Shown here: positions 1,838-49,445 of the stretch, piece by piece | How positions within the stretch are numbered: the first letter of the stretch is position 1 | How the letters are laid out: every line of letters starts with the position of its first letter | DNA from: Hyaloraphidium curvatum SAG 235-1 | Taxonomy: Eukaryota; Fungi; Monoblepharomycota | Reading direction: 5' to 3' | Assembly (NCBI GenBank): GCA_025558095.1 | Contig: JAIVFI010000037.1 | Location: forward strand, 186,001-250,000 | Length of the DNA stretch: 64,000 nt | Notes under the pieces: generated by a model | Database searches by the model: none | Told to the model about the DNA's origin: nothing | What the model saw: only the letters and a program-made list of their open reading frames with translations | Position numbers and translations under genes: made by a program

Positions 1838-4105
1838 CTATTTCGAACCCCGGCCCGAGACCCTGATGCTCTTTGTCCTGCTGTAGCTGGACGTCGGGCG
1901 GCTGCCCGCATCGATCGGGGTGCCCGCAGCGCCGTCGTCCGCGTCGTCGTTAGCGGCGGGGCCCCGGATCCGATCCAGCTCCTGCACGATGTCCTCGAAG
2001 GATGGCCGCTCCAGCGGGTCCTGCGCCCAGCACCGCTGAATCAGGGCCCAGATGTCGTCTCCGATGCCGTAAGGGCGCGTAGGCCGTCCCCCGCCCGTAA
2101 GAAAGGCCGCGATATCAGAATTGCTCCAAGTACCATGGGGCAGCGGCTTCGCCCCACGTGATGCGACTTCAAACGCCACCATGGCAAATGCGAAAACATC
2201 TGATGCTCCATGCGGCGCGGTTCCGGCAACGTAGAGCTCCGGCGCGATGTACCCGGGTGTGCCGCCTCGGACTTCGTCCCCCCCGGCGGTTGCCGTGATG
2301 CGCGACAGCCCAAAGTCCGCCACGAGAGCCGCCCCGCCGTGATCCACGAGAATGTTGGCGGGCTTGAGGTCGCTGTGGACGACGCCCTGCTTTTGCAGGG
2401 CCGACATGCCCTTGGCCACATCCTGGAGCAACTTCAGGCCCTTCGAGAGGTCCCAACCGTGGCGTTCCAGGTAAGAACGGAGATTTCCGTTCTTAATCAG
2501 GTTCGAGATTAGCATCGGCTGTGGCTCGAGGCAGAATGCCATGAGAGGAAGCACTGTTCGTGATCAGGCCCAAGTGGCGGAAGTGCTGCATGTCGGCTCA
2601 CCATTCGGGTGGTTCCCAACACGCTCCCACACGTTGGCTTCGTGCTGCACCATCTCTAACAGTTCCGCGGGATCAACGTCAATGGTACGGCGGGGGCGGA
2701 CAACCTTGATGGCCACGTCCGTTGTCCCGAACAGCTTCCCCACATAAACCTCCCCAAAGTTTCCCTCTGCAAAAGGCGGCTTTGTTCTGTCAAACGTTAT
2801 TTCTGAGGCGTTCACAAGGAGGAGCGTTTTTCGGTCTTTGAGCAGCCTTTTCTCGCGAGCTGCCAATGCTTTTGTTAGGCAGTCCTTCATTGCACGGATT
2901 CTTTCCAGCTGCTCTGGCCCAAGGACGTTGAAACGATTCTGCTCAAGATATTCCAGATGCTCCATTGACTCATCAATGTCCACTCGTTCATGATGGTCCA
3001 GGAGATAGCCAATCACATCGAAGCCATCCCCGTCATTTTCATCTCCATCATCACTTGACCCGCATTGGAGACCCCCAAATTTACGATTCCAGAGACGTTG
3101 GCGTTGACAAAAGGGGTCCTTGGAGTTCCAATGGTGATTTCTGGTGCTCTCAATCGCCAACATCAGAGGTGTTTGTCCGTCAACATTCCGTGCCCTGAAA
3201 TCGACCTTTTCACAGGCCATAAAAGCACTTAGGAATTTTTCGAATTGTGCCTTGCTTCGAATGGCTTCACCAAACGCCGAATCAGAACTGAACAAGGTGT
3301 GCAACGGTGTGTTGCCCTCTCCATCTCTACAGTTCACATCAAGGGTCGGATACTTGTCCGCGCGATCCAAAAAGAACTTGGCAACTTCCAGGTGCCCGTT
3401 CTGAACAGCCAGGTGCAAAGGTGAGACGAAAACAGTGTGCCGGTTACAGTTGACGTTGCCATCAGAGTACTTCGGAATTAGCAGCTTGAGAACTTCCAAG
3501 TGCCCGTGCTCACAAGCTAACGTGATTCCTTTCGCTACAGCGGCCTTCAATCTGCCAGCTTTGACGTACTTGATGAGCTCGCTCACAGCTTCCAGGTCAC
3601 CAAATCGGCAAGCGCGGGAGAAATCTTTCTTCAGGCGATGTCGTTGCCACAAAACCCGCAGCTCGAACTCGGTCGGCTCTCTGTCACTGAGGGGTCCTTC
3701 CGAAGTGTCCGTGGCGGTGTCTGGTAGCGAGACCTCATCGCTCCAGTCGTCCTCCGAATCGCTGTCGCTGTCGCTCCCCGAATCGTTCTCGCTGTCGCTC
3801 CCCGAGTCGCTTTCGTTATCATTTCCAGCGCCAATCTCGGCACTCGAGCTCCGGTCTTCGGACGAGCTCTCGTTGCCCGACGATTCCGCGTCGGCGGCGT
3901 CCGCCCGAGCCCTTCTGGCCGTTGTACCCCTAGTGCCCGTCTTGTTGATAGCATGTGCGCGACGTGCCGCCCGTCCGCGGCCGCACGATGGAGCCGAAAC
4001 GCGCGCCGGGGTTGCGCCACCCCGCCGCTTCGAGACCCCGCGGCCGGATGATGCCCCGCGGGAGACGGCGCGTCCTCGGGCGCCGCGGGGTCGCGAGCGC
4101 GTCAT
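1838..4105 (-). CDS. Ankyrin-repeat + tyrosine-kinase-like (TKL) protein kinase, 2 exons (intron 2554-2601)
   Basis: Ankyrin repeats (SPLHLAVQNGHLEVAKFFL, GNTPLH, GQTPLMLA). Kinase motifs EGNFGEVY, VAIK, HSDLKPAN, DFG, GTPGYIAPE. The 48-nt GTGAGC...CTGAT...CAG intron joins the ORFs as HPN-VLPLM. Basic then acidic low-complexity N-terminus. Confidence 0.9.
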
Positions 4106-10579: not shown

Positions 10580-11998
10580 ATGGAGTCTCCTCCTGCTCTG
10601 CGCCTCACGGCGGCGGAGGAGAGCGCCCTCTTCCCGGCGGGCGCCGCGGGCCCGGACCCGAAAGCGGACCCGAACGCGATCAAAGTGGAGGACGGCGGCG
10701 CGGGCACGGACCCTCTGGCGCTCGACGCCTCGGCACTGGTCGATGGACTCTCCCAAGACCCCTTCCTGCGTTTTGTCACGCGTCTCCATCTCGCGCTCGC
10801 GGGCGCCGCGCGCTGGACCGGGTATCGGCTGGCCGCCGTCGCCGTCTCGGAAGCGGCTCTCATCGCCGCCACTTGGGCGCTCAACAACCAGTCTCGGATC
10901 TTCAGCACCCGTCACTTGGCGGCATACACCGCCGCGAACGGATTGTGGTCTGCTTTCTGTGTCTGCATCGGGCTGCTCGGCACCGTGGCCGTCTTTGGGT
11001 TCCGCTTCGTGTCGGAGCCGCAGGCCGCAGCGCATCCCATGGCGACGCTCGTGCGATGGCGCCAGCTCGTGCAGGCGGGATCTGCGCTCGTCGCTCACGC
11101 GCCGAATGACAAGCTGTGCCCTTGCCCAGCGGACTCGTGCTCCGGCGCTCTCCCGAAGCAGGCCACCGCGCTTCGGGCACTCGCCCCGCTGGGCCCGCTG
11201 GTTGCCGAGCTCCTCGGCGACTTCTTCCTCATCTACACCCTCTCGTTCACTTTCCGCGCCCAGCTGTGGACGTCCGGGTGGGAAGCAACGGTCATCGCTT
11301 TCGGCGTCCTCCTCTACGGTACCCCCACCCATTTTATCAACGTCTGGAACACGCCCAGCACGGCACTCCTCCGGCTTCAAGGCCGGCTTCGGTACCGCGC
11401 CATGGACCTCATGCTCCGCGACACGCTCGCGCACCTCGAACTCTGCACCGCAACAAACACCCCCCCGCGCCTCCCGGCCGACGAGCCCTACATCTCCCTG
11501 CACTTCTCCCTCTCCCAAGCCTGGCCCTCCGAGCTCGCCCACATATCCTCGGGACGCGCCGGCCTCGTCGCCCTCTTCTTCCCGCTCCTCGTCGGGACCA
11601 TCGTCTCGGCCTCCGTGGCGTCCTGCATCCCCCTCTGGATCCTCTTCTTCGCACTCTGTGTGCTGGTTATATTGGTCCAGGAGATGCTCAACGTCGCGGC
11701 GGCGAACGCCGAGATCGACAGGGTTGCCTCCCTGTACCGCACCTTCCGCACCAAGATCCTCGTCTTCCTCGCCCGCAATCCCACGGAGCCCATCGCGCTC
11801 GCCCTGCGCGGCCACGCGGAGCTTCTCTCGGCGTTCGAGCGGACGGACGAGGTGCAGGGGACCTTCCTGGGGTTCCGGGTGCGGTATTCCGTCGTGAGGG
11901 GGTTCCTGGCGACGGTGCTGACGATCGCGGTCGGGCTGTGGTCGTTGTTGCGCGGGGCGGACGTGAACCTGACGCCCGAGACGGTGTGTCCTGGGTGA
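10580..11998 (+). CDS. 7-TM membrane protein, paralog 1 (GR/DUF3537-like 7TM ion-channel candidate)
   Basis: 472-aa intronless ORF with about 7 hydrophobic segments. Motifs shared with genes at 19992 and 46272. C-terminal TFLGFRVRYSVVRGFLATVLTIAVGLWSLLR. Confidence 0.75.
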   Translation: MESPPALRLTAAEESALFPAGAAGPDPKADPNAIKVEDGGAGTDPLALDASALVDGLSQDPFLRFVTRLHLALAGAARWTGYRLAAVAVSEAALIAATWALNNQSRIFSTRHLAAYTAANGLWSAFCVCIGLLGTVAVFGFRFVSEPQAAAHPMATLVRWRQLVQAGSALVAHAPNDKLCPCPADSCSGALPKQATALRALAPLGPLVAELLGDFFLIYTLSFTFRAQLWTSGWEATVIAFGVLLYGTPTHFINVWNTPSTALLRLQGRLRYRAMDLMLRDTLAHLELCTATNTPPRLPADEPYISLHFSLSQAWPSELAHISSGRAGLVALFFPLLVGTIVSASVASCIPLWILFFALCVLVILVQEMLNVAAANAEIDRVASLYRTFRTKILVFLARNPTEPIALALRGHAELLSAFERTDEVQGTFLGFRVRYSVVRGFLATVLTIAVGLWSLLRGADVNLTPETVCPG

Positions 11999-12052: not shown

Positions 12053-14305
12053 TCAATCCGACGACGACTGCGCAAACCCAGGATCGTCCATGGCCGCCGC
12101 CACCACGTCGACAATGTCGGAAGCCGCTGCCGCCGCTGCCGCCGCCGCTGCCGCCTCCCCCGCAACCCCCGCCGTCCCCCGCTCGTACTCCCCGCTCCCG
12201 TACGTCTCGCGCACCTCGGCTGCCTCGGCCGAGAACCCGACCTTCTTCCCCGACCCCCCGCGTCCCCCGTCCGCGAGCCCGAACTCGGGCAACCCCGCGA
12301 TCGGATCCGCCCCCGTCCCCCGCGCGGCCCCCGTCCCCGCACCCTCCGCCACGCAAAGGAAGCACGCCGACCCCGACCCGTCGTCCGCCGCGCCCCCGAG
12401 GTGCTCGCAGAACCCCGTCCCCCTCCCCGCGGACCGCAGCGAGGCCAGGTCCCACGCGCGCAGGGGGCGGGGCAGCGAGTCCTCGAGGAGGCCGCGGAGG
12501 AGGAGGCCGGCGCGGTGGTGGTGCGGCTGCCCCGAGTCCTCGAGGAAGCGGATGCAGGTGGCGGCGTCCGAGTGCAGGGCGGCAGGGCCGCCGAGGTGCC
12601 GGAGGACGACGAGGTCCAGCCATGCGGCGTGGGAGGCAGAGGCGGAGCCAAAGGTCAGCAGGTAGAAGTTGCCGCGGAGGTCCTGCGCGGCCATGCGCGC
12701 CGAGAGCATGCGCAGGCCGGCGGCGATCCCCGCAGCGCAGGAGGTGGCCTCGGCAAAGGAGGGCGAGCCGAACCAGATACGCAGCATGGCAGCTTCGATC
12801 TCGTGCCGGAAGGAGGCGTCGTCGGCGGCCAGAGGGCCCGATCCGTGAGAGGCTTGCGACACCGCGTCGTCCGAGTCTTCCCCGGCGAGATCCTCCGACC
12901 GCGCTCCGCCGCGTGGGTCGCCCGTGGACGCCCCCGCCGCCGAAAGCACCTCGTCGTCCCCCAACCACCCCGGCTGGAACGGCTCGGGGCTCACCAGCAT
13001 CATCTTCACCTGCCGCGTGAGCGCCAGCGACCCCAGCACCACCTGCCCCGCGTCCCCCGGCAGCCTGCCCAGGTCCGCATCCAGCGCGTCCCAGTCCCCG
13101 GCCTCCCATGCGGCCGTGCGCGCGGCGGGCGCGGCGGCGGACATGGCGCCCACGGCGTCGAGCAGGTGCCGCCGCCGGCGCACCGCTTCCCGGAGCAGCG
13201 GGTTGCGCAGCAGAGTCTCGCGGAGGATCACCGAGAGCGGGTCGGTGGCCCTGGGGGTGTTTGGATCGCGGAGGAGCTCCTCGGCCGCGAGCACGCCGAG
13301 CATGGACATGCCCGCTTCCTCCCGCAACCAGCGGCAGAACCGCGAGACCTGGTACAGCGCGTAGGCCGGCCCGGTGGAGGGCGCCAGGGGGCCGGCGTCC
13401 ATGGAGTCCGCGTACGCTGTGCGCACTGTGACTTCCCGCGGCACCGTCGGAGGCGGCATGCCGTCCTGCAGCGGGTCCAAGAAGCCGAGAAGATCCCTGC
13501 ACCGCGGGCGGTCGCAGAAGGCCACGGCGTCGGGCACGGGGGTGTTGGGCGGGCCGGCGTCAGGGCGCGGAATGGCGGCCAGGAGGACGGCGTGGGGCTG
13601 CAGGGGCACGTCCGGGAAGGATCGAGGAGGATCAAAGGCCATGTCGTCGTCGGCGAACGAGGCGAGCAGCGCGTCCAGGGCCATGCACAGCCAAAAGACG
13701 TCGCGCCAGTGCTCATCAATCAGGAGGTCATCCGCTCCGCGCGGAAATGTCTCCGAAGGGAGCTCCCCGGGCACGCGGGTGAGGGCCAAGGCGGCGGCCA
13801 GGTGGCGCGTGATGGCGCGGGCGGCATCGGGCCTGCCCATGAGCAGCAGCGAGAATCCGGCAGCCAGCGAGAGCGAGTAGAGCAGCGCGAGGTTGGGCAG
13901 CGTGCGGAGGGCTGCGCCGGGTGGCTTGCGGCCGCGGTCCATCGACCCCGTGCGGCGCCGGCCTCCCAGCAATGCGACGTCCTTCCAGAAGCGAGAGAGT
14001 TCCGTCCGCACGGTCGACAAGTAGTGTGCCTCGAGCGCCGGCACCGTGTGCTCCAGCTCGGCGTTGCCCGTCGTCGCCACGATGACCCGCGCGCCGACCC
14101 ACAGCGCTAGGGCGGCCATCGGCGGCGAGGAGTAGAGCTGCGACCACCGCGGGTCGCCCTCCCCGCCGGGCATTCCGCGGCCCGCCAGCAGAGATGCCAG
14201 CACGCCGCGTTCCGAGAAGCAGACGGTGTTGCCCGGCAGCGCGGCGGCGAAGGCGGCGCAGAGCGTTTCGCGCAGATCCGCGGGGAGGCCAAAGTAGGCC
14301 GCCAT
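12053..14305 (-). CDS. Fungal TF middle-homology-region-like protein with C-terminal CxH-CxxC finger and RVxF-type motif, paralog 1
   Basis: DEHWRDVFWLCMALDALLAS resembles the fungal TF MHR helix. Clear paralog of 31604-33829. C-terminal KKVGFSAEAAEVRETYGSGEYERG. Confidence 0.65.
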   Translation of the reverse strand: MAAYFGLPADLRETLCAAFAAALPGNTVCFSERGVLASLLAGRGMPGGEGDPRWSQLYSSPPMAALALWVGARVIVATTGNAELEHTVPALEAHYLSTVRTELSRFWKDVALLGGRRRTGSMDRGRKPPGAALRTLPNLALLYSLSLAAGFSLLLMGRPDAARAITRHLAAALALTRVPGELPSETFPRGADDLLIDEHWRDVFWLCMALDALLASFADDDMAFDPPRSFPDVPLQPHAVLLAAIPRPDAGPPNTPVPDAVAFCDRPRCRDLLGFLDPLQDGMPPPTVPREVTVRTAYADSMDAGPLAPSTGPAYALYQVSRFCRWLREEAGMSMLGVLAAEELLRDPNTPRATDPLSVILRETLLRNPLLREAVRRRRHLLDAVGAMSAAAPAARTAAWEAGDWDALDADLGRLPGDAGQVVLGSLALTRQVKMMLVSPEPFQPGWLGDDEVLSAAGASTGDPRGGARSEDLAGEDSDDAVSQASHGSGPLAADDASFRHEIEAAMLRIWFGSPSFAEATSCAAGIAAGLRMLSARMAAQDLRGNFYLLTFGSASASHAAWLDLVVLRHLGGPAALHSDAATCIRFLEDSGQPHHHRAGLLLRGLLEDSLPRPLRAWDLASLRSAGRGTGFCEHLGGAADDGSGSACFLCVAEGAGTGAARGTGADPIAGLPEFGLADGGRGGSGKKVGFSAEAAEVRETYGSGEYERGTAGVAGEAAAAAAAAAAASDIVDVVAAAMDDPGFAQSSSD

Positions 14306-14870: not shown

Positions 14871-15659
14871 TCACTGCACGGCCAGCGTCGCCATGTCCGG
14901 CTCGTCCTCCCCGGTGTACTTGTCGATCCCGATGTACCCCCCCGCCTGCTCGACCTTCTTCTTGTCCCGCTCGCTGAGCACGGGCCCGATCACGTCCAGC
15001 CGCTTCCACCCCGCCAGCGGCTGCTTCCCCTCGGCATTAGGCACGTGCGGCGACACCTCCAGGTGCCCCTTGGCGATGTACCGCCCGCAGTTGACGTAGA
15101 GGTGCTTGACCTCCACGACGCAGACGTACTGCGCGCCCGGGAACATGGAGAGCAGCGCCGGGTCCTGCGAGTGCCGCGCGATGCCCTGGGCGCGGAGCCG
15201 CCGCGGCTTCCCGAAGTCGACGAAGAGCAGGCCGACCTTTTTCGTCGCGGCGATGTTGCCGAGGGTGAGCTGCATCCCGTTGCCGTCGTAGAGCGGGAAG
15301 CACAGCTCGGACTTGCCCGTGGCGCGGACGAAGCCGGGGGCGCCGCCCTTGAAGCTGACGGTGGGCATGCCGCGCGAGTCCACGGTGGCCAGGAAGAACA
15401 TGGGCACGGATTCGACAAAGGCCCTGTCGTCGGGCGAGAACTCGGTGCGGGCCATCCGCTCCAGCAGGTCGGCGAGGCGACGCGTGTCATTCCGGTCCTG
15501 CAGCTCGCGGTGCCACTTGTCGTACAGGCCCGTGTCCGGCTCGGATGAGCCGCGGGAGAGGAGGCGGTAGGTCGCGTAGCCGGCGGCGGCGGCGGCGGCG
15601 CCGAGCGCGAGGAGGACGGCGGGCGGGCGGTCCCGCGCGGCCGAGCGGATGCGGTCCAT
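14871..15659 (-). CDS. Pyridoxamine 5'-phosphate oxidase-like FMN-binding protein with N-terminal hydrophobic anchor
   Basis: FFLATVDSRGMPTVSFKGGAPGFV, YDGNGMQLTLGNI, VGLLFVDF..PRRLR, YVNCGRYI. Intronless. Confidence 0.85.
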   Translation of the reverse strand: MDRIRSAARDRPPAVLLALGAAAAAAGYATYRLLSRGSSEPDTGLYDKWHRELQDRNDTRRLADLLERMARTEFSPDDRAFVESVPMFFLATVDSRGMPTVSFKGGAPGFVRATGKSELCFPLYDGNGMQLTLGNIAATKKVGLLFVDFGKPRRLRAQGIARHSQDPALLSMFPGAQYVCVVEVKHLYVNCGRYIAKGHLEVSPHVPNAEGKQPLAGWKRLDVIGPVLSERDKKKVEQAGGYIGIDKYTGEDEPDMATLAVQ

Positions 15660-15897
15660 CGCGGCGGCGGAAACGGGGGGCTGCGAGGCGTGGCCCGGAA
15701 CGGGTGATTGCACGCACGGCAAGCATCAGACAGCACTCGGCGAGTCGTTCGGTGGGACTCACGGGAAGCAGGATCGGCGTTCTCGGCGTGGGCGGCAAAC
15801 GCCAATAAAAATAAAGGCCGGCCCGCGAGCCAGCCCGCGAGCGGTGTCTCCCATCACATCCAAAACCCTCGCCACACCCGCCGGTCGATCGATTCCG

Positions 15898-17133
15898 ATG
15901 TCGGCGGTCGCGTGGGAGCTGCCTGCGGACGTGATCGCGGTGCGCGACGGCCTGCTCGCGTTTGCGCGCGCCGAGGTCCTCCCGCGGCACGCCGCCCACG
16001 CCGAACTGTTCGCCGACCCGCGCCGGCTGTACCGCGACGACGGCCGCTTCTCCGATGAGCTGATGGCACTCATCACGGAGGTCCGCACCGCTGCTGCCAA
16101 GGCCGGCTTCTACAACATGTGCGTGCCAAAGAGCCTCGGCGGCGGCGGCATGGGCCACCTGGCCTACTACGTCGGCTGGGAAGCGCTGTTCCGGCTGTGC
16201 GGCCCGCAGAATTGGCTGATGCTGTATGTCATCGCGCACTGGGCATTCGGGCCGAGCAGGCTGCTGGAGAAGGTCACGCCCGAGGCCCGCGAGCGCTTCC
16301 TGGGACCGCTGATGCGCGGCGAGGCGTCGATGTGCTTTGGCCTCTCCGAGCCCGGCGCCGGGTCGGATGCCGCGGCGCTCTCTACCCGTGCCGTGCCCGA
16401 CGGCGACGGTTGGCGCATCTCGGGCCGCAAGATCTGGACAACCAACGCCCCCGTGGCAGATTTCTGCGTCGTCTTTGCGGTTACCGACCCCGACAGGGCA
16501 GCCCAGCGTCGCGGCGGCATCAGCGCCTTCCTCGTCCCGACCTCATCCCCCGGATTCCAAGTGGAGCGCGTGATCAAGCTCTTCGGGCACATCGGCGGGG
16601 ACGAAGCCTCGCTCCTGCTCTCCAACGTGCGCGTGGAACCGTGGCAGCTCGTCGGCGACCTGCACTCGGGCTTCGCCTCGGCCATGTACGGCGTCTCCCT
16701 CGGCCGGGTGTACAATTCCGCCCGGGCGGTCGGAACCGGCCGCTGGGCCCTGGAGCTCGCCCTCTCGTACGCGAAGCAGCGCAGGGCATTCGACGCCGCC
16801 ATCTCCGAGTTCCAGGGCGTCACGTTCCCCATCGCCTCGTCGTTCACCGAACTGCACGGCGCGCACCTCATGGGCCTCAACGCCGCCATCCTCCTCGACA
16901 AGGGGCACCCGGCGCTGAAGGAGCTCTCCATGGCCAAGGCCTACTCGGTCCAAGTTGGCTTCCGCGCGGTGGACAGGGCGATGCAGACACATGGCGCGAT
17001 GGGGTTCACGAACGAACTCGGGATGATTCACGCGTGGCACGCACTGAGGGTGGTGAACGTTGCGGATGGGACGAACGAGATCTTGAATCGGGGGATCGTG
17101 CAGCAGTTGCTGAGGGGGGACCTGGACATTTGA
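15898..17133 (+). CDS. Acyl-CoA dehydrogenase (bacterial-like)
   Basis: CFGLSEPGAGSDA, WRISGRKIWTTNAP, YAKQRRAF, AVDRAMQTHGAMGF, VADGTNEI. Intronless. Confidence 0.92.
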   Translation: MSAVAWELPADVIAVRDGLLAFARAEVLPRHAAHAELFADPRRLYRDDGRFSDELMALITEVRTAAAKAGFYNMCVPKSLGGGGMGHLAYYVGWEALFRLCGPQNWLMLYVIAHWAFGPSRLLEKVTPEARERFLGPLMRGEASMCFGLSEPGAGSDAAALSTRAVPDGDGWRISGRKIWTTNAPVADFCVVFAVTDPDRAAQRRGGISAFLVPTSSPGFQVERVIKLFGHIGGDEASLLLSNVRVEPWQLVGDLHSGFASAMYGVSLGRVYNSARAVGTGRWALELALSYAKQRRAFDAAISEFQGVTFPIASSFTELHGAHLMGLNAAILLDKGHPALKELSMAKAYSVQVGFRAVDRAMQTHGAMGFTNELGMIHAWHALRVVNVADGTNEILNRGIVQQLLRGDLDI

Positions 17134-17341
17134 GGGTTGTCGCGACGCGTGCTCTCCGAAATGCGCTTTCAGTAGCATGTATAGAGCTTGAGAGCTCAAT
17201 CATTGTGGAGTTTTGGACGGTTTGTCTCCAGGCGCTGGTATTTGGGCAGTCATCCGTCTTGGGAGACATTTCCAACGATTACTGACTTGTGAGGCCGCAG
17301 CTCCTGTTCCAATCCCACGGCCTGAACGACGGGAACGCGCG

Positions 17342-18205
17342 ATGCTCGTCGAGCTCGTTTCCGTGACCACCTCCGACGGATTCCGCCTCGATGGCGCGCT
17401 CCGTGCCCCTGCTGCTGCAAAAGACGCGCGTGGCCTGCCCGCCGACGCGCTGATCGCGATCCACGGCGCGACCGGCAACTTCTACGGGGAATCCTTCTTC
17501 TCCCGTGTGTCGGACGAGCTCTCCTCCCGGGGATGCGCCGTGCTCCGCATAAACAATCGCGGCCACGATTTCGCGTACCCGGTTCGGAACCTCCGGGGCT
17601 TCATGGGCACCGCGTTCGAGGTCATCGACGATTCGCGGAAGGACCTGCAGGCCTGGCTGGACTTCCTCGAGTCCCGCGGATACAAGCGCATCGCCGTCTG
17701 GGGCCACTCCCTCGGCGCCGTCAAGACCGTCTACTCGATCGCGACGGACGCGGACCCCCGCGTCGTCCTCGGGCTGGCCTCCTCCCCCCCGCGCTTCTAC
17801 TACGCCACGCACGCCGACTCTTCCTACGGGCCCGAGTTCAAGAGCAACATCGCGCGGGCGGAGGAGCTGCTCCGCGAGGGCAAGCCCGAGGAGCTGATGC
17901 GCGTCGCGGTGCCCCTGCCGGGGCTGTTTTCGTCGGCGACCTACAGGGACAAGTACGGGCCCGAGGACAGGTACGATTTCCTGCCCTTGCTGGAGAAGCT
18001 GCCGGTGCCGATGCTGGTCACGCTGGGCGGGGAGGAGACGCAGACGTACTACATCGACCTGCGCCGCGAGGGACCGGACATGGCCAAGAAGATCGAGAAG
18101 CTGGAGTACAAGGTGATCGAGGGCGCGGATCACCTGTACACGGACAAGTACGGGGAGCTGTGGGAGGCCGCGTGGGCGTGGATGGAGGGGCTGCCGAAGG
18201 CGTGA
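17342..18205 (+). CDS. Alpha/beta-fold hydrolase (DUF1749-like)
   Basis: IHGATGNFY, NNRGHD, nucleophile elbow GHSLG, C-terminal IEGADH. Intronless. Confidence 0.85.
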   Translation: MLVELVSVTTSDGFRLDGALRAPAAAKDARGLPADALIAIHGATGNFYGESFFSRVSDELSSRGCAVLRINNRGHDFAYPVRNLRGFMGTAFEVIDDSRKDLQAWLDFLESRGYKRIAVWGHSLGAVKTVYSIATDADPRVVLGLASSPPRFYYATHADSSYGPEFKSNIARAEELLREGKPEELMRVAVPLPGLFSSATYRDKYGPEDRYDFLPLLEKLPVPMLVTLGGEETQTYYIDLRREGPDMAKKIEKLEYKVIEGADHLYTDKYGELWEAAWAWMEGLPKA

Positions 18206-19991: not shown

Positions 19992-21575
19992 ATGCCTGCA
20001 GTCGCGGCCAATGGAAACACGGAGAGCACCGCCAAGGATGGAGACAGCGTGTCCCTGGGGAATCTCGACGCGTCACCTACCTCTCGGCAAGCGACACCGT
20101 CAGCGCCGGTGCAGCTCTCCGGGGAGGACATGCTGGCGCTCTTCCCGTGGCTCCCGCCGCCAATCTCCTCGCTCGAGGACGGTGTTCCCGAGAACGCCGA
20201 GTTCGCGGCCGTCCGCGCGGCGAACCCGCTGGACCCGGGGAGCTTTCTGGACGCGCTGCGCGCCAGCCGCAGCACAGTTGCCCTCGAGCTGATCTGCCGC
20301 GCGGTTCTTCGCTATGGCTCATGGCACTTTAACATCCAAACTGCCCTTGTATGGTCCATTTGGGCCGCGTTACTTGGCGTTGCTTGGTGGTTTAGCTCGT
20401 CGAACTCGGCCCCGGCTTTCGGAACGGCGCAGCTTGCGGCGATGGCCCTGACTGTTTGGTCGGGATTAGCGCAGCTTCTGATCCTGAACGCGTTTTGGTC
20501 GCGGTCTAGGTGGCAGAAGGTGATGACCCGCTCGATGTCCAGCCCTGGCGCATCGCCCTTGGACATTCACCCTCTTGCCGGTTATGTTCGATGGCATCAA
20601 TTGGCTGCAGCCAAGAGCACATCATTGCTGCTGATTCATGACCCATCGGATTCAAGTTGCCCGTGCCCCCTGCCGGCGTGTGTCGGCAACCACCTGATCA
20701 AGTATGCTTGGTATCGCATTGCTGTCATGCTCGCCATCAGTTCCGTTCTCTTCTGCTTCGTATTCTTTCAGATGTACACCACCTTTATCTCTTTCTCGGC
20801 GCGATTCTGGGCCCAGTGGTGGTCCTACATCCTCGCTGCGCTAGCCCTGTCTCTTGGCGTGTCGCAGATCGCAACCACCTGGCCCGGCTTGAGCACGACC
20901 TCCAACGCCTACAGCCTCGACGTGGCTAGGCGCTTGCACCGGCGCGCCATGAAGCTGGCCATGCAATCGCTCCTGGCGCGCCTCAGATTCGCGCTCGCCC
21001 ATGGCGACGACGCAGTGCTTGACGAAGGGGACTGCGAGCTCTACGCGCGCCTGCACGACGAGTTGGCGGCGACCTGGCGGTACCGCTTCCCGTTACTCTC
21101 CCATTCCGGGACGGTATCGCTCTTCTGGGTCGTGGTTTTCGCGATCAACACCGTTATTACCGCCTCCGTAGGCTCCTGCGTACCCGCATAGTACATTTCC
21201 ATATTCGTCTTTGCACTCATCACGATCACGGCGGACCTGCTCAACCTCTCCTACAACAACGCGCAGATCTCGCAGGCGGTGGACCTGTACACGGACGCAC
21301 GGCACGCGATCGCGGCCATGGTCGTCGCGGCGCAGAGCGGGCCTGCCTCGGGATGGAAGAGGGATCTCGTGGCGAGGATGTGGGGCCACGACGCGCTGCT
21401 GGCTTCGTTCCTGGACGTGTCGCGGTACAAAGGGCAGTTCCTGGGCTTCACGGTGGATTTCGGGTTCACGCGGAGCCTGCTCATCACCGTGTTTACCGTG
21501 ATCATCGGCCTCGTGTCGATCTTGCGGGGCTCGGGGCTTTTCGTCTCGCTGGATTACGTCTGCCCGAGCAGGTGA
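19992..21575 (+). pseudogene. 7-TM membrane protein, paralog 2, with a single in-frame TAG at 21189-21191
   Basis: ORFs 19986-21191 and 21279-21575 are in the same frame. Reading through gives GSCVPA*YISIFVFALITITADLLNLSYNNAQI, collinear with paralogs 1 and 3. Confidence 0.7.
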
Positions 21576-22268: not shown

Positions 22269-22516
22269 TTGACCGAACTGGCAGTGACGCATCGGCTTCC
22301 TGCTAGGTGCAGATGATGAGGCGAGGTGGATATTCCAGTGCGGTTGAGCACGGGCACAGGGGTGAAGAGAACTGTAACAGACCGCACATATTCAGACTAT
22401 ATCTGACCTGGCCTACGTCCTGCCGTCACGGGTTGCTTGCCGTCCGACGAGGGGCTCTTGGTAGGCCTACACAGCGCGAACTGAGACCCCGAAATCGATC
22501 CCACATTCCGCCGCCG

Positions 22517-24967
22517 ATGAGCGCGCCTCGGGGCAGTTTGGAGGACCGGCTGCGAGCGGCGAGCGCGGCGGGCGACGCCGCCGCCGTGGAGCGGTACCTT
22601 TCCGCGGGCGCCGACCCGAACGCGAAGGACGCAGCTGGCCACTCGTGCTTCACTCTCGCGTGCCTGCGCGGCCACGCCGCCATCGTGGACCGCCTGCTAA
22701 AGGACCCGCGGGTCGATGTGGGTTCGGTGGACGCCGTCGGCTATAATGCCCTGTGCCTAGCCGCCCGGTACGACCCGCGGGGGGCATCCGTGGACCTCCT
22801 CCTCGCCGACGCGCGCACGGACGTCAACCACTCGGGCGCAGACGGCTGGACCCCTTTAATGCTCGCCGCCTTCTACGAACCCACCGGTGCCGTGGCAGAG
22901 AAGATCCTGCGGCACCGAAGGACGGACGTCAACGCCGCAAACAGGTCCGGCAACACCGCGCTGATCCTGGCGGCCCAACAGGGGCACGCCCGCGCGCTGG
23001 CCGCCCTTCTGCGCCGCCACGACGCCGACTTGAACGCACGCAACTCGCACGGAAATACGGCGCTGGTCATGGCCTGCGTCAACGGCCGGACGGAGGCGGT
23101 CGCCCTGCTCGCCCGGGACCCGCGCGTGGACCTCAATCTGGCGAACGGGTACGGCAAGACCGCGGCGGACTACGCCAGCCCCGCCTTGCGGCCCGTGCTG
23201 CAAGCCGCCACCGACGAGCGCCGGCGCAGGGAGGCCCAGGCCGCCGCCGAGCGCGCGGCGGCGGAGCGCGCCTACCGCGAGAAGCTGGCCGAGGAGGCCC
23301 GCCGCCTCGAGGCCGAACGCGCGCGGGCGGAACTCGAGCGCCAGAGGCGCGAGGCCGAGATCGACGCCGAGCGGCGGAGGCGGGAAGCCGAGATCGAGTC
23401 CGATCGCAGGCGGCGCGAGGCCGAGCTCGACGCGGAGCGCCGCCGCGCGGAGGTCGAGCGGCAGAAGAAGGAGGCCGAGGCCGAGGCCGCGCGCAGGCTA
23501 CGCGCGGAGCAGGAAGCGGCGGCTCTCGCGGCCAAGCGGCTTCGGGACGAGCAGGAGGCCGCCGCCGCGGCGGCGCTCCGCCGGCGGGCAGAGGAGGAAG
23601 CCGCGGCCGCCGCGGCGCTGCAGCGCCGCCAGACCGAGACGGAGCTCCTCGAGCGACAGCTCCGCCTCCGCCAACGGGAGGAGGAGGCCGCGCGCGCCGC
23701 GGCGGCGGAGATTGCGAGGAAGGAGGCGCTGGCGAGGCGGCTGCGCGAGCACGAGGAGGGGCAGCTCCGCCTGCGGAGGGAGGCCGAGGCCGCCGAGGCG
23801 CGGCGGAGGAGGGAGGAGGAGGAGCGCGCGCACAAGCTCAGGGAGGAGGAGGAGAGATTGCGGCTGGAGCTCAGGCAGCAGGAGGTCGCGGTGCTCGCCG
23901 AGCAGGTGCGGCTGCAGGAGAAGCTGGCGGCGCTGCAGCTCCTGCAGGTCGAGGGCGGCAAGTCGACGGGCGCGGCCGGCAAACCCGGATCCGAGGGCAC
24001 CCTGGGCGGCTCGTCGGGCTCGATCGGCTCCGCGTCGTCCTCGGGCGTCTCCAAGCTCCGCGTCGACGCATCGGACGTGGCCATGACGGACCGCGTTCTG
24101 GGCGAGGGCGCGTTCGGGATCGTGCGCGAGGGCGTGCTCAGGGGATCCACGAGGGTGGCGGTAAAGACGATCAAGGCGGGGATGGCGATGGACGCCGAGG
24201 TGATGAAGGCGTTCGTGGCCGAGGTCAGGGTGTGGGAGGGGCTCAACCAGAAGAGTGGGTGGCATGGTCGGCCCCGTTCCATTGCTTCTGCTGACCTACA
24301 GCCGCCTCTTTCCAGACATCCTTCCGCTGCTTGCCTACTGCGAGTCGCCGCCCATGATGATCTCCGAGATCGTGCGGGGCGGGAACCTCAGGTCGCACAT
24401 GACCAAGCTCGGCTGGCCTATAGACAGGGGCCTGCGGCTGCTTACGGACGTGGCCGCGGGTATGGCCTTCCTGCACAGCTTCTCGGTGCTCCACGGGGAC
24501 CTGAAGAGGTAGGGCCCGATGATCCCGCCCGACAGGTCGTCTACCTAACCCCATCCCGCCGCCACAGCCTGAACATCCTCGTCGACCGCGACACCGCCAA
24601 GATCGCCGACTTTGGCCTCGCCCGCGTGCGCGAGGCCATGGCCCGCACCACCGCCAGCGCCGGCGTCAGCGGCACCGTCGGCTTCCTAGCCCCCGAGCGT
24701 TACGAGGGCATCCTCAAGCACCCCGCGGACGTCTACGCGTTCTCCATGTGCATGTACGAGGTCGTGTCTGGGGGCAAGTTCCCGTTCGAGGGGATGCTCC
24801 CCATCGCGGTGATCAAGAAGGTCTGCTACGACCGCGAACGTCCGCCGCGGCCCGAGGGGACCCCCGACAGGGCGTGGGGTCTCATGGAGCGCGCGTGGGC
24901 GCAGGATCCGGCGGCCAGGCCGGGTTTTGTGGAGGTCAGGGACGAGATGGAGATGTGGGAGGAGTGA
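22517..24967 (+). CDS. Ankyrin-repeat + coiled-coil + TKL protein kinase, 3 exons
   Basis: About 6 ankyrin repeats, a long E/R/A-rich helix, GEGAFGIV, VAVK, spliced HGDLKSLN, DFG, GTVGFLAPE. Introns at 24255-24315 and about 24509-24567. Confidence 0.9.
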   Translation: MSAPRGSLEDRLRAASAAGDAAAVERYLSAGADPNAKDAAGHSCFTLACLRGHAAIVDRLLKDPRVDVGSVDAVGYNALCLAARYDPRGASVDLLLADARTDVNHSGADGWTPLMLAAFYEPTGAVAEKILRHRRTDVNAANRSGNTALILAAQQGHARALAALLRRHDADLNARNSHGNTALVMACVNGRTEAVALLARDPRVDLNLANGYGKTAADYASPALRPVLQAATDERRRREAQAAAERAAAERAYREKLAEEARRLEAERARAELERQRREAEIDAERRRREAEIESDRRRREAELDAERRRAEVERQKKEAEAEAARRLRAEQEAAALAAKRLRDEQEAAAAAALRRRAEEEAAAAAALQRRQTETELLERQLRLRQREEEAARAAAAEIARKEALARRLREHEEGQLRLRREAEAAEARRRREEEERAHKLREEEERLRLELRQQEVAVLAEQVRLQEKLAALQLLQVEGGKSTGAAGKPGSEGTLGGSSGSIGSASSSGVSKLRVDASDVAMTDRVLGEGAFGIVREGVLRGSTRVAVKTIKAGMAMDAEVMKAFVAEVRVWEGLNQKSGWHGRPRSIASADLQPPLSRHPSAACLLRVAAHDDLRDRAGREPQVAHDQARLAYRQGPAAAYGRGRGYGLPAQLLGAPRGPEEVGPDDPARQVVYLTPSRRHSLNILVDRDTAKIADFGLARVREAMARTTASAGVSGTVGFLAPERYEGILKHPADVYAFSMCMYEVVSGGKFPFEGMLPIAVIKKVCYDRERPPRPEGTPDRAWGLMERAWAQDPAARPGFVEVRDEMEMWEE

Positions 24968-31603: not shown

Positions 31604-33829
31604 ATGGGCGACGCCGACGATGTCCGCGCGCGGCGGGAATTCGTCGCGGCGTTCCTCGCGCAGCTCGTCCCGGGCTCGGTGGCGTTCCACGCGGGCGCGT
31701 TCTGGGAGGTGCAGGCGGCGGCGGACGGCGCGGCGTGGCACGGCGACCCGCGGTGGCGGGCGCTCTACGGCCACCCGCTGCTCATCGCCGCGATCAACTG
31801 GTTCGGCGCGCGGACGCTTCTCGACGCCGGCGCGCCCGACGTGGACGCCGCACTCGTCGGCGCGCTCGAGGACGACTTTGCCGCGCGGCTGCGGAGGCAC
31901 CTCGACGCCTTCTGGGCCGCCGCCGCCGGGGCCGGCCCCGCCGCGCTGCAGACCGGGGACAACCTCGCCGTGCAGTGGGCCGTGGTGCACGCCTCGGCCT
32001 TCGTCTACCTCACCGAGTCGCGAAACGTGTCGGGCCGCCAGCTGATGCGCCAGGCCGCATCCATGTTCCGCGCCATGAGGGTGCCCGGCGAGATCGACTA
32101 CGAGTACTACTCGCCGAAACGGACTCTGGACGACTGGTTCTTCCGCCAGACGTTCGTGTACAATTTCTGGAGTTGGTTGGGTGGCGAGCTCTGGCTGGCA
32201 GCAAACACCAAGACTCCCCCGCTCATCGACCCCGTGGCCGAGTTCCCCAGCGTGCCCTTCATGCTCCCGCCCCCGTGGCTCACCGGCATTCCCCCGCCGT
32301 CGGAGCGCCCGCTCGACGAACCCGTGCCCGAGAACCTGACCCCCTGGGTGTTCCGCGTCTCGGACTACCTGGGCATGGTCGATCCCGTCCTCTCCTCGCC
32401 GCCCAACGACTACATCCTGGCCGCCGTGGTCGGCGAGATGAAGCTCGTGGGCCCCGTGCCGATGATGCTCTTCCTCAACTACGCCCTGCTCAAGGTCTCG
32501 GAGTTTTCCGCGTGGCTCAAGGCCGCGGGCCTCACGGTGCTGCAGGTTCTCGTGGCCGCCGAGGTGCGCCAGGGAAGCAGCCCGGCCATGGCCAACGCCG
32601 GCGTCCTGCCGTGGGTCGCCGCGGTGCTCGCCAACCCGCTCGTGGACGAGGCCATCCGCCGGCGGGCCTTCCTCCGGGACGCGATCGAGCGCTTGGAGAC
32701 CTACATCCCCGCGGACGTGATCCAGGCGCAGCGGCGGAGTGACTACGCCGCGTACGACGCGGCGCTGGAGATGCTGCCCCTGGCGGCGCGGGAGCAGATC
32801 CTCGCGGGGCTAATGGAGCTGCGGCTCACCCTCATGGTGCTCAACTCGCCCGAGCCGTTCGAGGACCTGGTCGTGGCTTCCGGCGCGCCCCCCTCCCCCG
32901 CGAGCGAGGACTCTTCCGAGGTCGCCGACGTCGGCGACGGGGAGTCCGAGGACAGCGAGGAGGACCCCGAGTCCTCGGCCCTGGACCTGTGGCTCTCCTC
33001 CGCCGCCTTCCCCGCCGCATGCTCCAACGCCATGATCATCGCCGCCAACTCGCGCATGCTCCTCGCGCGGGGCCCCGCATCCTTCGCCAAAAGCATGTTC
33101 GCCACCTTTGCCTACCAGTCCGCCGCGCACGCGGCGTGGTTCAACCTGCTCGTCCTGCGGCGCTTCGCCCACGCGGCCGCCGGCGCCTCCGAGGGCGCCC
33201 AGGCCCGCGCACTGGCGCTGCTCGAGGCCATCCACGCCGACATCTCCGCGTGCCTGGAGCTGCTCGCCGCGTCGGGGCAGGAGCAGCAGCTCGCCGTGCG
33301 GACGATGCTCCAGGGGGTGCTGGAAGGCAGGACGGCGGTGACGCGGGCCGAGATGCAGGTGATGCGGATGGCGCGGCAGCTGGCAAGGTGGTGTCCCCAC
33401 GGCGGACAGGGGGGCGGGGAGGGGGGTTCGTGCTGGATCTGCGCGACGAGGGGAGGGGGGGAGGAGGGGGACGTCGGCTCGGGGGATCCGTTCGCGGGGT
33501 TGCCCGAGTACGTGCCCCTGAGCGGGGTCACGAGGGATCTGTCGCAGACGACGACGCTGGTGGGCAGCGACGCGGGATCGGGGTCTGCGGAGCTGCAGTC
33601 CCCGCCGACAAAGGACGGCGGGCGGCGGGTGCGGTTCGCGAACGAGGTGCTGGTCTACGAGACGTGGAGCAAGGAAGAGTACCCGCAGCGGTCGATGCGG
33701 TGGAAGGACGAGGGGGAGAAGAGGGCGGCGGCGGCAAAGGCGGAGGCGGCCAAGACGATCAACTTCATGCTGCAGCAGCGCGACATCGACGTGTCGCTGA
33801 TGCCGGACCTGAAAATGTTCTGGAAGTGA
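31604..33829 (+). CDS. Fungal TF MHR-like protein with C-terminal CxH-CxxC finger and RVxF motif, paralog 2
   Basis: Shares GDPRW..LY..P, DP...FP.VP, L.NPL..EA.RRR, SPEPF, DP.AGLPE with 12053-14305. Near its C-terminus it carries RRVRFANEVLVYETWSKEEYPQR. Confidence 0.7.
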   Translation: MGDADDVRARREFVAAFLAQLVPGSVAFHAGAFWEVQAAADGAAWHGDPRWRALYGHPLLIAAINWFGARTLLDAGAPDVDAALVGALEDDFAARLRRHLDAFWAAAAGAGPAALQTGDNLAVQWAVVHASAFVYLTESRNVSGRQLMRQAASMFRAMRVPGEIDYEYYSPKRTLDDWFFRQTFVYNFWSWLGGELWLAANTKTPPLIDPVAEFPSVPFMLPPPWLTGIPPPSERPLDEPVPENLTPWVFRVSDYLGMVDPVLSSPPNDYILAAVVGEMKLVGPVPMMLFLNYALLKVSEFSAWLKAAGLTVLQVLVAAEVRQGSSPAMANAGVLPWVAAVLANPLVDEAIRRRAFLRDAIERLETYIPADVIQAQRRSDYAAYDAALEMLPLAAREQILAGLMELRLTLMVLNSPEPFEDLVVASGAPPSPASEDSSEVADVGDGESEDSEEDPESSALDLWLSSAAFPAACSNAMIIAANSRMLLARGPASFAKSMFATFAYQSAAHAAWFNLLVLRRFAHAAAGASEGAQARALALLEAIHADISACLELLAASGQEQQLAVRTMLQGVLEGRTAVTRAEMQVMRMARQLARWCPHGGQGGGEGGSCWICATRGGGEEGDVGSGDPFAGLPEYVPLSGVTRDLSQTTTLVGSDAGSGSAELQSPPTKDGGRRVRFANEVLVYETWSKEEYPQRSMRWKDEGEKRAAAAKAEAAKTINFMLQQRDIDVSLMPDLKMFWK

Positions 33830-44685: not shown

Positions 44686-46272
44686 TCACGCAGCCGAAGG
44701 ATACGTCGGGCACACGCTGTCAACGACGATGGCGATCCCAGCCGACCTGAGCACCGACCACAGTCCGACAGCGATGGTGAACACGGCCGCCAGCACACCC
44801 CTCGCCATCCCCGGGCCGACGGCGACCCCCGCCACGCGGGCGCGGTGCCGCTCCGCCGTGCCCGCAAAGAATGCGAGCTGCGCGTCGTGCGCCGCGAGCT
44901 CCTCCAGGGCAAAGGGGCAGGCACCGCGGCGCCGGGTGGTGAGGGCGCGGTGGATCCGCGCGCGGGCGGCAACGTACAGGTCCACGATGAGGTCGATCTG
45001 CGAGTTGGCCACGGCGAGGTTGATCAGGTTCGGGAGGAGCTGGGCGAGCAAATAGAGCAGCACGATCGGCACAAAGAGCGGAAGGCAGGAACCTCCGACG
45101 GAGAGGATAATGCCGGCAGCGATGATGCCAGTGAGATGAATAGCCAAGCGGGTAAGGCTGTAGCTCACGGAAACGGCACGTGCCCGCCAGACACGAGCAA
45201 GGCGGTCATGCAGCTCCGCGTGCATGTCAGGCGCAGAAGACATCGGCTGGGTGGGTTCCAGCCCAGCCGCATGGACTGCGTCGCCGATCGAGCCGGCACA
45301 AGTCCTTCCTTCGGCGCACAAACAAGAACTTTGCACCTGACCCACCAAACGAGCGACTAGATCGTCCAAAGCGAGGCCCATCGCACGGTGCTGCAGCCTT
45401 TTTGACACCCGCAGCACAGGGGCCGAGTTGGCAAAGATGCCAAAAATGAATGATGGCGGACCCCAGATCCAGAACAGCAGCGCCATAGCGCCGATGACAG
45501 CCGACCAGCCTGTGGTCCAAAAGACCAGCCCGAAGGTGACGTACGCCGTCAACGCCGTCAGCACTGAGTATGCAAGGAAAATCAGGCAAGATTTCACGGT
45601 CGATTCAATCCAGTAGGTGGCGGCGGCTTCGGCACAAGCGCGGCCGACGCAGGAGGGGAGAGGGCAAGGGCACTCGGCGTCGCCGTCGGCATGGCGGGCT
45701 AGCGCCCCGTCGGGTTCGCGTTCGACGAGGTCCCTCCAGCGGGCGAGCACTGCCACGGGTTGCGAAGAGTAATCTCCGGTCTTGCGCGGGCTCGCGGTCA
45801 CTAACGATGTGCCGAACTTGTCGAGTACCTGGACTAGCGCGCCGGCCATGTGGACGACGAAAACGCCTGCCAGGCTTACGCCGACCTGTGCACGCGTAAA
45901 GAAGTGGCCGGCCACGGAGACTCCCCCGGGTGGGACGAAGGCAAACAGGGAGGCGACGGCAGCCGACGCCACGAAAGCGGGTAGGAATGAGCGCGTCATT
46001 ATCACGCGCCAGAACGCGAACGAAGATAGGCAGAGCGGGTAGAAGCGCACGGCCGCGCGCAGGGCCGGCCCCGGCAGCGCGGCGAGCAGCGTCGGCAGCG
46101 GGAGGGTGGGATCGATGGCACTTCCGGCGGAACCCTTTTCCGCGTCGCCCGAGTCGGCGCCGCCTGTCCGGCTGTCGTCCGCTTCATCCGCTACCGCGAC
46201 GAGACCCAGGGGCGGAGATGCCCCAGCCGGGAACAGAGCCAGCCATTCTCTCGGAGTGAACGCGAGTCCCAT
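44686..46272 (-). CDS. 7-TM membrane protein, paralog 3
   Basis: HADGDAECPCPLPSCVG, FWTTGWSA, GSCLP, and ARVAGVAVGPGMARGVLAAVFTIAVGLWSVLR...VCP. Confidence 0.75.
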   Translation of the reverse strand: MGLAFTPREWLALFPAGASPPLGLVAVADEADDSRTGGADSGDAEKGSAGSAIDPTLPLPTLLAALPGPALRAAVRFYPLCLSSFAFWRVIMTRSFLPAFVASAAVASLFAFVPPGGVSVAGHFFTRAQVGVSLAGVFVVHMAGALVQVLDKFGTSLVTASPRKTGDYSSQPVAVLARWRDLVEREPDGALARHADGDAECPCPLPSCVGRACAEAAATYWIESTVKSCLIFLAYSVLTALTAYVTFGLVFWTTGWSAVIGAMALLFWIWGPPSFIFGIFANSAPVLRVSKRLQHRAMGLALDDLVARLVGQVQSSCLCAEGRTCAGSIGDAVHAAGLEPTQPMSSAPDMHAELHDRLARVWRARAVSVSYSLTRLAIHLTGIIAAGIILSVGGSCLPLFVPIVLLYLLAQLLPNLINLAVANSQIDLIVDLYVAARARIHRALTTRRRGACPFALEELAAHDAQLAFFAGTAERHRARVAGVAVGPGMARGVLAAVFTIAVGLWSVLRSAGIAIVVDSVCPTYPSAA

Positions 46273-48129: not shown

Positions 48130-48479
48130 CCTTCGAAGAAACCGGGCGCCGGCTGCCGTCCGCCGGTGGTTCCGTTTGGGTGTTTGGGTGATCGAGAGCA
48201 ACGAATTGATCTCGCCCTTCGGACTCTTCGGCTTCGCGTGCGGCGGATCAAAATCGGCCCTGACTCCCAGCAGATCGCGCGGCGGAGTGCCTGCTATACA
48301 GAGAATCTAGATTTTGTGTTTTCCATTCATTCCGGGGGCCGATTGCACGGCTAGACCGTCCATCGGGACCGGCCGGTGCCGCCTTCCGGCCGGCCGATCC
48401 GCAATGGACCGCGCCACCGAGATTTCAAAACCGCAGCCCACGACCCCGGCGTTCGGCCCATCAAATGCTGCAACACGCC

Positions 48480-49445
48480 ATGGTACCCTTCAGCAACCGC
48501 GTCACGGCGCTCCTGGGCGTTCCCCACCCCGTGCTGCTCGCACCCATGGCATTTGTCTCGGACGCGCGGCTCGCGTGCGCCGTCACGGCGGCCGGCGGGC
48601 TGGGCTTCCTCGGCGGCGGCTACGGCGACGCCGAGTGGCTCAACAAGGAGCTCGCGTACGCCGCCGAGCAGGGCGCGCGGGTCGGCGTGGGCTTCATCAC
48701 GTGGAGCTTGGAAAGGAACCCCGCCTTGCTCGACATCGCGCTGGCAGCCAAGCCCGCCGCGATTGCCCTCTCGTTCGGAGACCCGCGGCCGTTCGCCCCG
48801 AAGATCCGTGCCGCCGGCATCCCGTTGCTGTGCCAGGTGCAGACGCTCGACCATGCGAGGGAGGCGGCCGAGGCCGGTGCGGACGTGCTCGTAGCCCAGG
48901 GCACCGAAGCCGGTGGCCACGGCGCCTCGCTAGCACTGTTCCCTTTCCTTCCCGCCGTCGTCGACGCCTTCCCGCACATCCCCGTGATCGCAGCGGGCGG
49001 CATCGCCGACGGGCGGGGGCTGGCCGCGGCCCTGGCCCTCGGTGCCGAAGGTTGCTGGTTGGGCAGCCGCTTCTACTCGACCCTCGAGTCGCCCGCGCAC
49101 CCCGATGCAAAGAAGAGGGTGGTGGCGGCCAAGGCGGGGGACACGCTGCGCACCTCGGTGTTTGACATCTCCAGGCGGATCGCGTGGCCCGAGCCGTGGG
49201 ATCTTCGGGCCATCCGCAACACGCACTCGGACAAATGGGTCGGGAAGGAGCTAGACCTGCTGGGTAGGCCCGAGGAGGCCGACAGGTACGACGCGGCGCG
49301 GGATGCCGGCGATTTCGACGTGGCGGCCGTTATCGTCGGCGAGGCCGCGGGGCTCATCAACGACGTCCCACCCGCGGGAGAGGTCCTGAGGCGCATCGTC
49401 GACGAGGCGACGGGCGTGCTGCGGAAGCTTGCGTCGAAGCTGTAG
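48480..49445 (+). CDS. Nitronate monooxygenase / 2-nitropropane dioxygenase family, PTS1 (SKL)
   Basis: PVLLAPM, AGGLGFLG, VAQGTEAGGHG, PVIAAGGIADGRGLAAALALGAEG. Ends ASKL-TAG. Intronless. Confidence 0.92.
   Translation: MVPFSNRVTALLGVPHPVLLAPMAFVSDARLACAVTAAGGLGFLGGGYGDAEWLNKELAYAAEQGARVGVGFITWSLERNPALLDIALAAKPAAIALSFGDPRPFAPKIRAAGIPLLCQVQTLDHAREAAEAGADVLVAQGTEAGGHGASLALFPFLPAVVDAFPHIPVIAAGGIADGRGLAAALALGAEGCWLGSRFYSTLESPAHPDAKKRVVAAKAGDTLRTSVFDISRRIAWPEPWDLRAIRNTHSDKWVGKELDLLGRPEEADRYDAARDAGDFDVAAVIVGEAAGLINDVPPAGEVLRRIVDEATGVLRKLASKL

Follow-up and report, generated by a model that had tools for sequence, protein, structure and literature searches.

A large family of fungal proteins with a predicted insect-receptor-like channel fold in Hyaloraphidium curvatum

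Seven-transmembrane ion channels (7TMICs), the superfamily to which the insect odorant (OR) and gustatory (GR) receptors belong, are found across life, and, according to a 2023 screen, nearly all that is known of what they do comes from insects (10.1101/2023.08.30.555482). The copy numbers given outside animals, in the available part of an earlier survey, are a single gene for each of two chytrids, no more than 6 for protists and 4-12 for plants (PMC7746228); insect GRs number 12-197 (PMC12635824). By its own statement, the 2023 screen did not recover the chytrid members (10.1101/2023.08.30.555482). Here, we describe a family of proteins from Hyaloraphidium curvatum SAG 235-1, a fungus placed in Monoblepharomycota by NCBI and described as non-flagellated in excerpts of two papers (PMC8371127; PMC10459994). 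The starting point was a stretch of 64,000 nucleotides of GC-rich, eukaryotic DNA (assembly GCA_025558095.1, contig JAIVFI010000037.1, positions 186,001 to 250,000; hereafter the window), which holds three members of the family: genes A and C, both intact, and gene B, interrupted by an in-frame stop (Table 1). The superfamily and its single chytrid members are already known; what stands out here is the scale of the family and its host.

The AlphaFold models of the two intact genes are confident (A: predicted local distance difference test 90.9, predicted template modelling score 0.90; C: 88.4 and 0.88), and the same seven OR, GR and Orco chains rank first for both, aligned end to end over 300-350 residues. 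Most unrelated matches align over fewer than 200 residues, and one, 6zbj, over 247-267. The comparison of the two models thus favours the Orco/GR-like fold that a first-pass annotation, made from the letters alone, had proposed. Long transmembrane (TM) helices TM4, TM5 and TM6, forming a cytosolic anchor, are present in both models (residues 233-256/261-292, 303-323/326-347 and 352-399 in A; 255-278/284-319, 350-394 and 400-445 in C), as is a helix ahead of TM1 (61-77 in A). The anticipated split of TM7 is there too, with a beta-hairpin between the helices: in A, a helix at 405-419, strands at 428-429 and 432-433 and a helix at 436-459; in C, a helix at 453-475, the hairpin and a helix at 487-510. 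One may argue that the resemblance is convergent, or an artefact of modelling a generic helical bundle, given that the structural alignments to ORs and GRs have 7-15% identity, a root-mean-square deviation of 5-6 Å and Foldseek E>0.001, with no link between hidden Markov models (HMMs). Yet two separate high-confidence models lead to the same chains, aligned end to end, and the order of helices, the anchor and the split TM7 with its hairpin all agree, which makes this explanation highly improbable. Among viral proteins, the top structural matches to the gene A model were two giant-virus proteins, BFVD entries A0A1V0SCD1 (Catovirus CTV1) and A0A3G4ZRZ0 (Edafosvirus), of about 440 residues (Foldseek probabilities 0.99 and 0.96, E 0.06-0.09), possibly viral proteins of the 7TMIC fold.

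The family is large. A five-sequence profile scanned with HMMER against 1.84 billion representatives clustered at 50% identity gave 411 matches at E<=0.001; of these, 359 pass a cutoff of 1e-10 and 217 one of 1e-30. Among the best 150 of the 411, the last is still full-length (E 4e-46). This size is visible only by the full scan, as word-index protein searches recovered just 3-5 members. Thirty of the best 150 were looked up (10 evenly spaced, 10 fragmentary or odd, and 10 picked randomly among the remaining 126). Hypothetical proteins of H. curvatum account for 28 of them; another is gene C's own model, and the last, P0148, comes from environmental assemblies. The named H. curvatum records lie on at least 21 different contigs, and the family is therefore spread over the genome. 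We aligned 151 proteins to the HMM (the best 150 matches, with P0154 replacing P0148, and gene A); all eight helical segments are present in 115 of them, and 105 of these 115 keep all nine key residues. Median pairwise identity is 27% in the 114-member alignment used below. A floor of more than 100 full-length members is safe, and bears out the large repertoire that had been extrapolated from three copies. A total of 200-400 is likely, with the proviso that 261 of the 411 matches lie beyond the best 150 and that some proteins may have been counted more than once as fragments. The environmental protein (P0148/P0154) is nested in the family, where it pairs with a single H. curvatum paralog as its sister (49% identity, support 0.97), and hints that a relative of the fungus carries this family too. 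This position suggests that the family diversified before the split from that relative; a search for metagenomic relatives of P0154 confirmed none (0/209 pattern matches). Five proteins (P0009, P0037, P0045, P0122 and P0144) carry long extra C-terminal parts or internal repeats, which may be fusions of gene models or real ones.

At the sequence level, the family stands apart. Neither the window genes nor any of the 95 members scanned, out of 114, had a Pfam match at E<0.001. No row for 7tm_6 or 7tm_7, the insect OR and GR families of Pfam, or for DUF3537 (PF12056) appeared for the window genes, nor in 25 of the 26 families displayed for the 95 members at E<=1. Searches of PDB sequences gave no meaningful match, and weak rows for KCNQ1, an opsin, S14 and gp41 in the Pfam and PDB searches were judged to be chance. 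The likeness to insect GRs/ORs and to DUF3537 noted by the first-pass annotation is not seen as a Pfam HMM match, and the link to ORs and GRs is structural. Because of these negatives, we file the family as a lineage of the 7TMIC fold, not as GR, OR or DUF3537, an assignment that is very probably correct. In the ESM Atlas, gene A scores 0.95-0.96 with unnamed eukaryotic and giant-virus clusters (0.95 with one containing Nucleocytoviricota members), 0.93 with TMEM39 and 0.92 with DUF3537, with low recognition. This nearness could mean that the proteins are true 7TMIC homologues without a sensory channel role, for example scaffolds or regulators of intracellular membranes, which could also be true of PHTF-like or DUF3537 proteins; it is not known whether PHTF-type proteins act as chemoreceptors (PMC12635824), and the Q/F gate motif is absent from our family. 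Still, a second paralog has all its ESM Atlas scores below 0.9, and housekeeping fails to explain why more than 100 copies, only 27% identical, would be kept with their pore and anchor residues unchanged, so we regard such a role as quite unlikely.

The averaged hydropathy of the family has seven peaks, which, with the helices of both models, upholds the annotated count of about seven TM segments; a simple single-sequence scan gives 6 segments for A, 7 for B and 8 for C. Loops 1-2, 3-4 and 5-6 have about 14, 10 and 4 residues, loop 2-3 about 53, and loops 4-5 and 6-7 about 67 each; another estimate puts the TM2-TM3 loop at about 55-85. The loop after TM4 is thus long, as annotated, but those after TM2 and TM6 are long as well. 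The long, basic parts are the N-terminus and loops 2-3, 4-5 and 6-7; the short ones are the tail and loops 1-2, 3-4 and 5-6. Each sequence has about 27 lysines and arginines on the N-terminal side vs about 3 on the other. By the positive-inside rule, the N-terminus would be inside, as previously proposed, and the C-terminus outside; the extracellular loops would then be shorter than the intracellular ones, as asked of 7TMIC members. This loop pattern, together with the low rank of natural G-protein-coupled receptors in the structural lists (Foldseek probability 0.11 or less), speaks against an N-out, rhodopsin-like receptor of that type.

The strongest signature of the family, missed by the first-pass annotation, is a set of invariant residues: H173, C180, C182, C187, C349 and N376 (gene A numbering) are each found in 114/114 aligned members. 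C470 is nearly so, with G431 and T448 (112/114 each), and R440, T448 and R458 are near-invariant. H173, C180, C182 and C187 likely form a putative zinc site in an inner loop, and C349 and C470 likely a putative disulphide on the outer side, where short strands are seen at 349-351 and 463-465 of the gene A model. Measured by column entropy, TM7b varies least (1.68 bits), the tail (1.78) and then the hairpin (2.11) come next, and TM1-TM6 vary most (2.89-3.04). This bears on the possibility that the proteins are passive channels for solutes or nutrients, each paralog passing a different small molecule. The fungus feeds by absorption, and both the channel-like fold and the large number of copies would suit such a role. 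Diverse permeants predict a variable pore and constant outer helices, the reverse of what is seen, and this explanation is very unlikely. The animal TM7 motif, (T/S)Yhhhhh(Q/K/E)(F/L/M), is found in 0/114 members. If T448 is taken as the counterpart of its first position, the residue at +7 is S, G or T in 114/114 members and that at +8 is V, I or L in 109/114.

How might such proteins work? The sequences give many copies, deep divergence, a constant TM7b and anchor, and variable TM1-TM6; the last contrast is what a repertoire with a shared pore and paralog-specific pockets predicts, and it is the pattern reported for 7TMICs in general (10.1101/2023.08.30.555482). From the models and by analogy with insect receptors, we lean towards the view that the window genes are dispersed members of a family of more than 100 paralogs encoding tetrameric ligand-gated channels of the OR/GR fold, which would sense many chemicals outside the cell. 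The proposed mechanism involves 1) assembly of four subunits through the cytosolic parts of TM6, TM7a and the hairpin, as predicted; 2) a central pore that would be lined by the TM7b helices, by analogy with GRs; 3) closure of this pore near its outer end by a hydrophobic residue at position 456 (V/I/L), beside a small polar one at 455 (S/G/T); 4) binding of a ligand in a TM1-TM6 pocket differing among paralogs, which would open the pore; 5) entry of ions, which could signal to growth, metabolism or spore formation rather than swimming; and 6) a cytosolic His-Cys-Cys-Cys zinc site and an extracellular disulphide from the tail after TM7b to the TM5-TM6 loop, which may stabilise or couple the gate. 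A tetramer model of a fragment gave 0.58 vs 0.00, with contacts at the anchor, a result that may reflect the memory of the predictor, and its pore contacts are not confident. Two points limit this proposal: neither the Pfam nor the PDB searches tie the family by sequence to 7tm_7, to DUF3537 or to a protein of solved structure, and a stop codon interrupts gene B among the window's three copies. Gene B is probably a recently disabled copy, as expected under birth-and-death evolution. A more ambitious version, in which an insect-scale repertoire of two to four hundred ligand-gated seven-TM channels, the largest outside animals, evolved independently in a single-celled fungus that lost its flagellum, with a zinc site and a disulphide-tied gate of its own, is slightly less likely than not.

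The same fold could serve in non-self recognition or defence, with paralogs that detect a cue from a parasite, a grazer or an incompatible cell and open a pore that sets off cell death or a stress response. That a cell unable to swim has so very many, and so diverged, copies would agree with this, as immune and allorecognition families expand similarly, and a conserved pore with variable outer helices fits equally well as it fits nutrient sensing. The genomic context speaks otherwise: no defence-type gene or domain fusion lies near A, B and C, there is no local tandem array of them in the window, and they are as distant from one another as random members (3.5-3.7 substitutions per site in the tree vs a family median of 3.56). 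Defence appears unlikely. These distances, and the position of each gene in a separate clade, also rule out recent local duplication as the origin of the three; as the tips of the tree are 50%-identity representatives, recent duplicates are hidden and the long terminal branches (median 0.91) are partly built in.

The paralogy of A, B and C, claimed by the first-pass annotation, is supported by their pairwise identity (30-31%, E 1e-33 to 1e-38) and by the family HMM, whose six-frame scan of the window retrieves exactly these loci, the next match (E 0.0015) covering 55 profile positions. An HMM rebuilt after leaving out A, C and two proteins close to A again finds the three loci and no other credible one in the window. 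Of the three annotated loci, A and C are open frames and B is not. Contigs of run X1 span all three with zero joints inside any of them, which fits the intronless structure noted at first. This run is not recorded as RNA; we treated it as such only on 7 of 9 joints with GT..AG ends on one strand or the other, and its contigs run across neighbouring genes, so that neither strand nor level is readable from them. Two freshwater-metagenome runs (X4 and X5) hold just scattered short pieces and were not used. Among the motifs listed earlier, ALFP, W...W and SC.P occur in all three genes, N....NA.I and GH..LL..F in two of three, and P....RW..L and the terminal pattern in none as written, their spacers being off, although relaxed forms occur in all three.

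Table 1. Coordinates of the family members in the window and of features discussed in the text (residues in gene A numbering unless stated)
Feature	Position	Strand	Evidence or remark
Gene A, 7TMIC-fold protein, 472 aa, intact, single-exon	10580..11998	+	Open reading frame (ORF); identical to database protein P0001; AlphaFold; structural matches to OR/GR/Orco
His-x6-Cys-x-Cys-x4-Cys, residues 173-187, TM2-TM3 loop (putatively cytosolic)	11096..11140	+	Invariant
Cys349, short TM5-TM6 loop (putatively extracellular)	11624..11626	+	114/114
TM7a, residues 405-419, anchor helix	11792..11836	+	Helix in model; main inter-subunit contact in tetramer model
Beta-hairpin between TM7a and TM7b, residues 428-433, including Gly431	11861..11878	+	Two short strands in model; G431 112/114
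TM7b, residues 436-459, predicted pore-lining helix	11885..11956	+	Most conserved segment
Cys470, C-terminal tail	11987..11989	+	112/114
Gene B, full-length family member, one in-frame stop	19992..21575	+	Translation, paralogy, family HMM
Premature TAG of gene B, codon 400, just after SC.P, TM6 start	21189..21191	+	Seen in window; X1 contig agrees
Gene C, 7TMIC-fold protein, 528 aa, intact, single-exon	44686..46272	-	ORF; AlphaFold; structural matches to OR/GR/Orco

The frame of gene B ends after 399 residues and then continues in frame to the end of the gene, so that the stop would remove TM6, TM7a and TM7b. X1 shows spliced joints in genes nearby, and its contig over 19949-21946 has 0 differences from the window and no joint, which argues for a genuine stop that most copies of the sequence retain unspliced, and against an assembly error. 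The database model P0005 bypasses it by skipping 33 codons (21168-21266). We reject splicing of this kind, because X1 lacks such a joint and the skip deletes TM6; the P0005 intron is likely an annotation artefact. Reading TAG as a sense codon is equally rejected, since it ends 4 of the 16 ORFs checked, including that of the nitronate monooxygenase. Downstream of the stop, the sequence resembles the family no less than intact members do: against a profile that excluded B it scores 138 bits and ranks 43 among 116 C-terminal segments (GC content at third codon positions 0.89). A recent nonsense mutation is the simplest reading, which would make gene B, in all likelihood, a null allele or a pseudogene of recent date; readthrough of the TAG is a possible alternative.

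The neighbours of the three genes encode enzymes of metabolism, a kinase with ankyrin repeats and a MYND protein. Long ORFs at 14871-18205 and 48465-49445 encode a pyridoxamine-oxidase-like protein, an acyl-CoA dehydrogenase, an alpha/beta hydrolase and a nitronate monooxygenase, and may have been acquired from bacteria. Two genes combine ankyrin repeats with a protein kinase (1838-4105, minus strand; 22313-24967, plus strand, confirmed by Pfam) and perhaps represent another expanded signalling family. Two ORFs of 741-750 residues (12053-14305, minus; 31604-33829, plus) are 30% identical over their length (E 8e-60), lack a Pfam match and share a C-terminal C-x-H...C-x2-C motif; they are possibly a second lineage-specific family.

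We found no published report of a gustatory-receptor-like family or of a receptor expansion in H. curvatum, although supplements of papers could list some members. Among the papers listed as naming Hyaloraphidium since 2022, none treats this family, judged by title or the start of the abstract; the main text of the 7TMIC preprint (10.1101/2023.08.30.555482) mentions neither Hyaloraphidium nor Monobleph-, though its supplements could list members, and a term look-up in a survey of fungal G-protein-coupled receptors (PMC12842992) gave 0 occurrences. The family is invisible to every Pfam model, and the records sampled are all labelled hypothetical proteins. More than 100 intact, deeply diverged copies of intronless type in one fungus indicate that the fold has undergone mass expansion a second time, independently, and offer a natural panel for testing whether the superfamily originally served in ligand-gated chemoreception. 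The expansion also raises the question of what use such a repertoire is to a cell that does not swim. If the more ambitious version above holds, ionotropic chemical sensing by large 7TMIC repertoires would not be special to animals with neurons.

The known systems differ in what they share with the family. Insect ORs and GRs (7LIC MhOR5, 8V02 AaegOR10, 8V3D AgamOR28, 8JM9 Gr43a, 8VC1 BmGr9 and 8Z9Z/8Z9A OR5-Orco) resemble it in the predicted seven-helix fold, the long cytosolic TM4-TM6 anchor, the TM7a/hairpin/TM7b arrangement, a putative anchor-mediated tetramer, the conserved, predicted pore helix with variable TM1-TM6, and a repertoire of at least 100. Unlike them, the H. curvatum family lacks detectable sequence similarity and the TYhhhhhQF motif, and has a longer TM2-TM3 loop with an invariant His-Cys-Cys-Cys, a conserved cysteine pair, putatively extracellular, and a basic residue after TM7b; the window genes are intronless, and the fungal host has neither neurons nor a flagellum. 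The chytrid proteins SpunGRL1 and SpalGRL1 of Spizellomyces, compared by their description in PMC7746228, share the fungal 7TMIC topology and have a degenerate TM7 motif, with one of four positions kept. They occur as one gene per genome in zoospore-forming chytrids, in contrast to more than 100 copies in another phylum, Monoblepharomycota. Plant and algal DUF3537 proteins (Class-A eukaryotic 7TMICs) have a largely unrecognisable TM7 motif and long intracellular loops, like our family; their likeness to gene A is at the level of ESM Atlas features only (0.92), there is no PF12056 match, and plant families have 4-12 members (PMC7746228). Finally, PHTF-like Class-B 7TMICs share the extended TM2-TM3 loop (10.1101/2023.08.30.555482) and similar Z-scores against insect receptors (PHTF 11.8-12.9); they differ from the H. 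curvatum family, which has no PHTF match among the Pfam families displayed and carries a cysteine motif in this loop.
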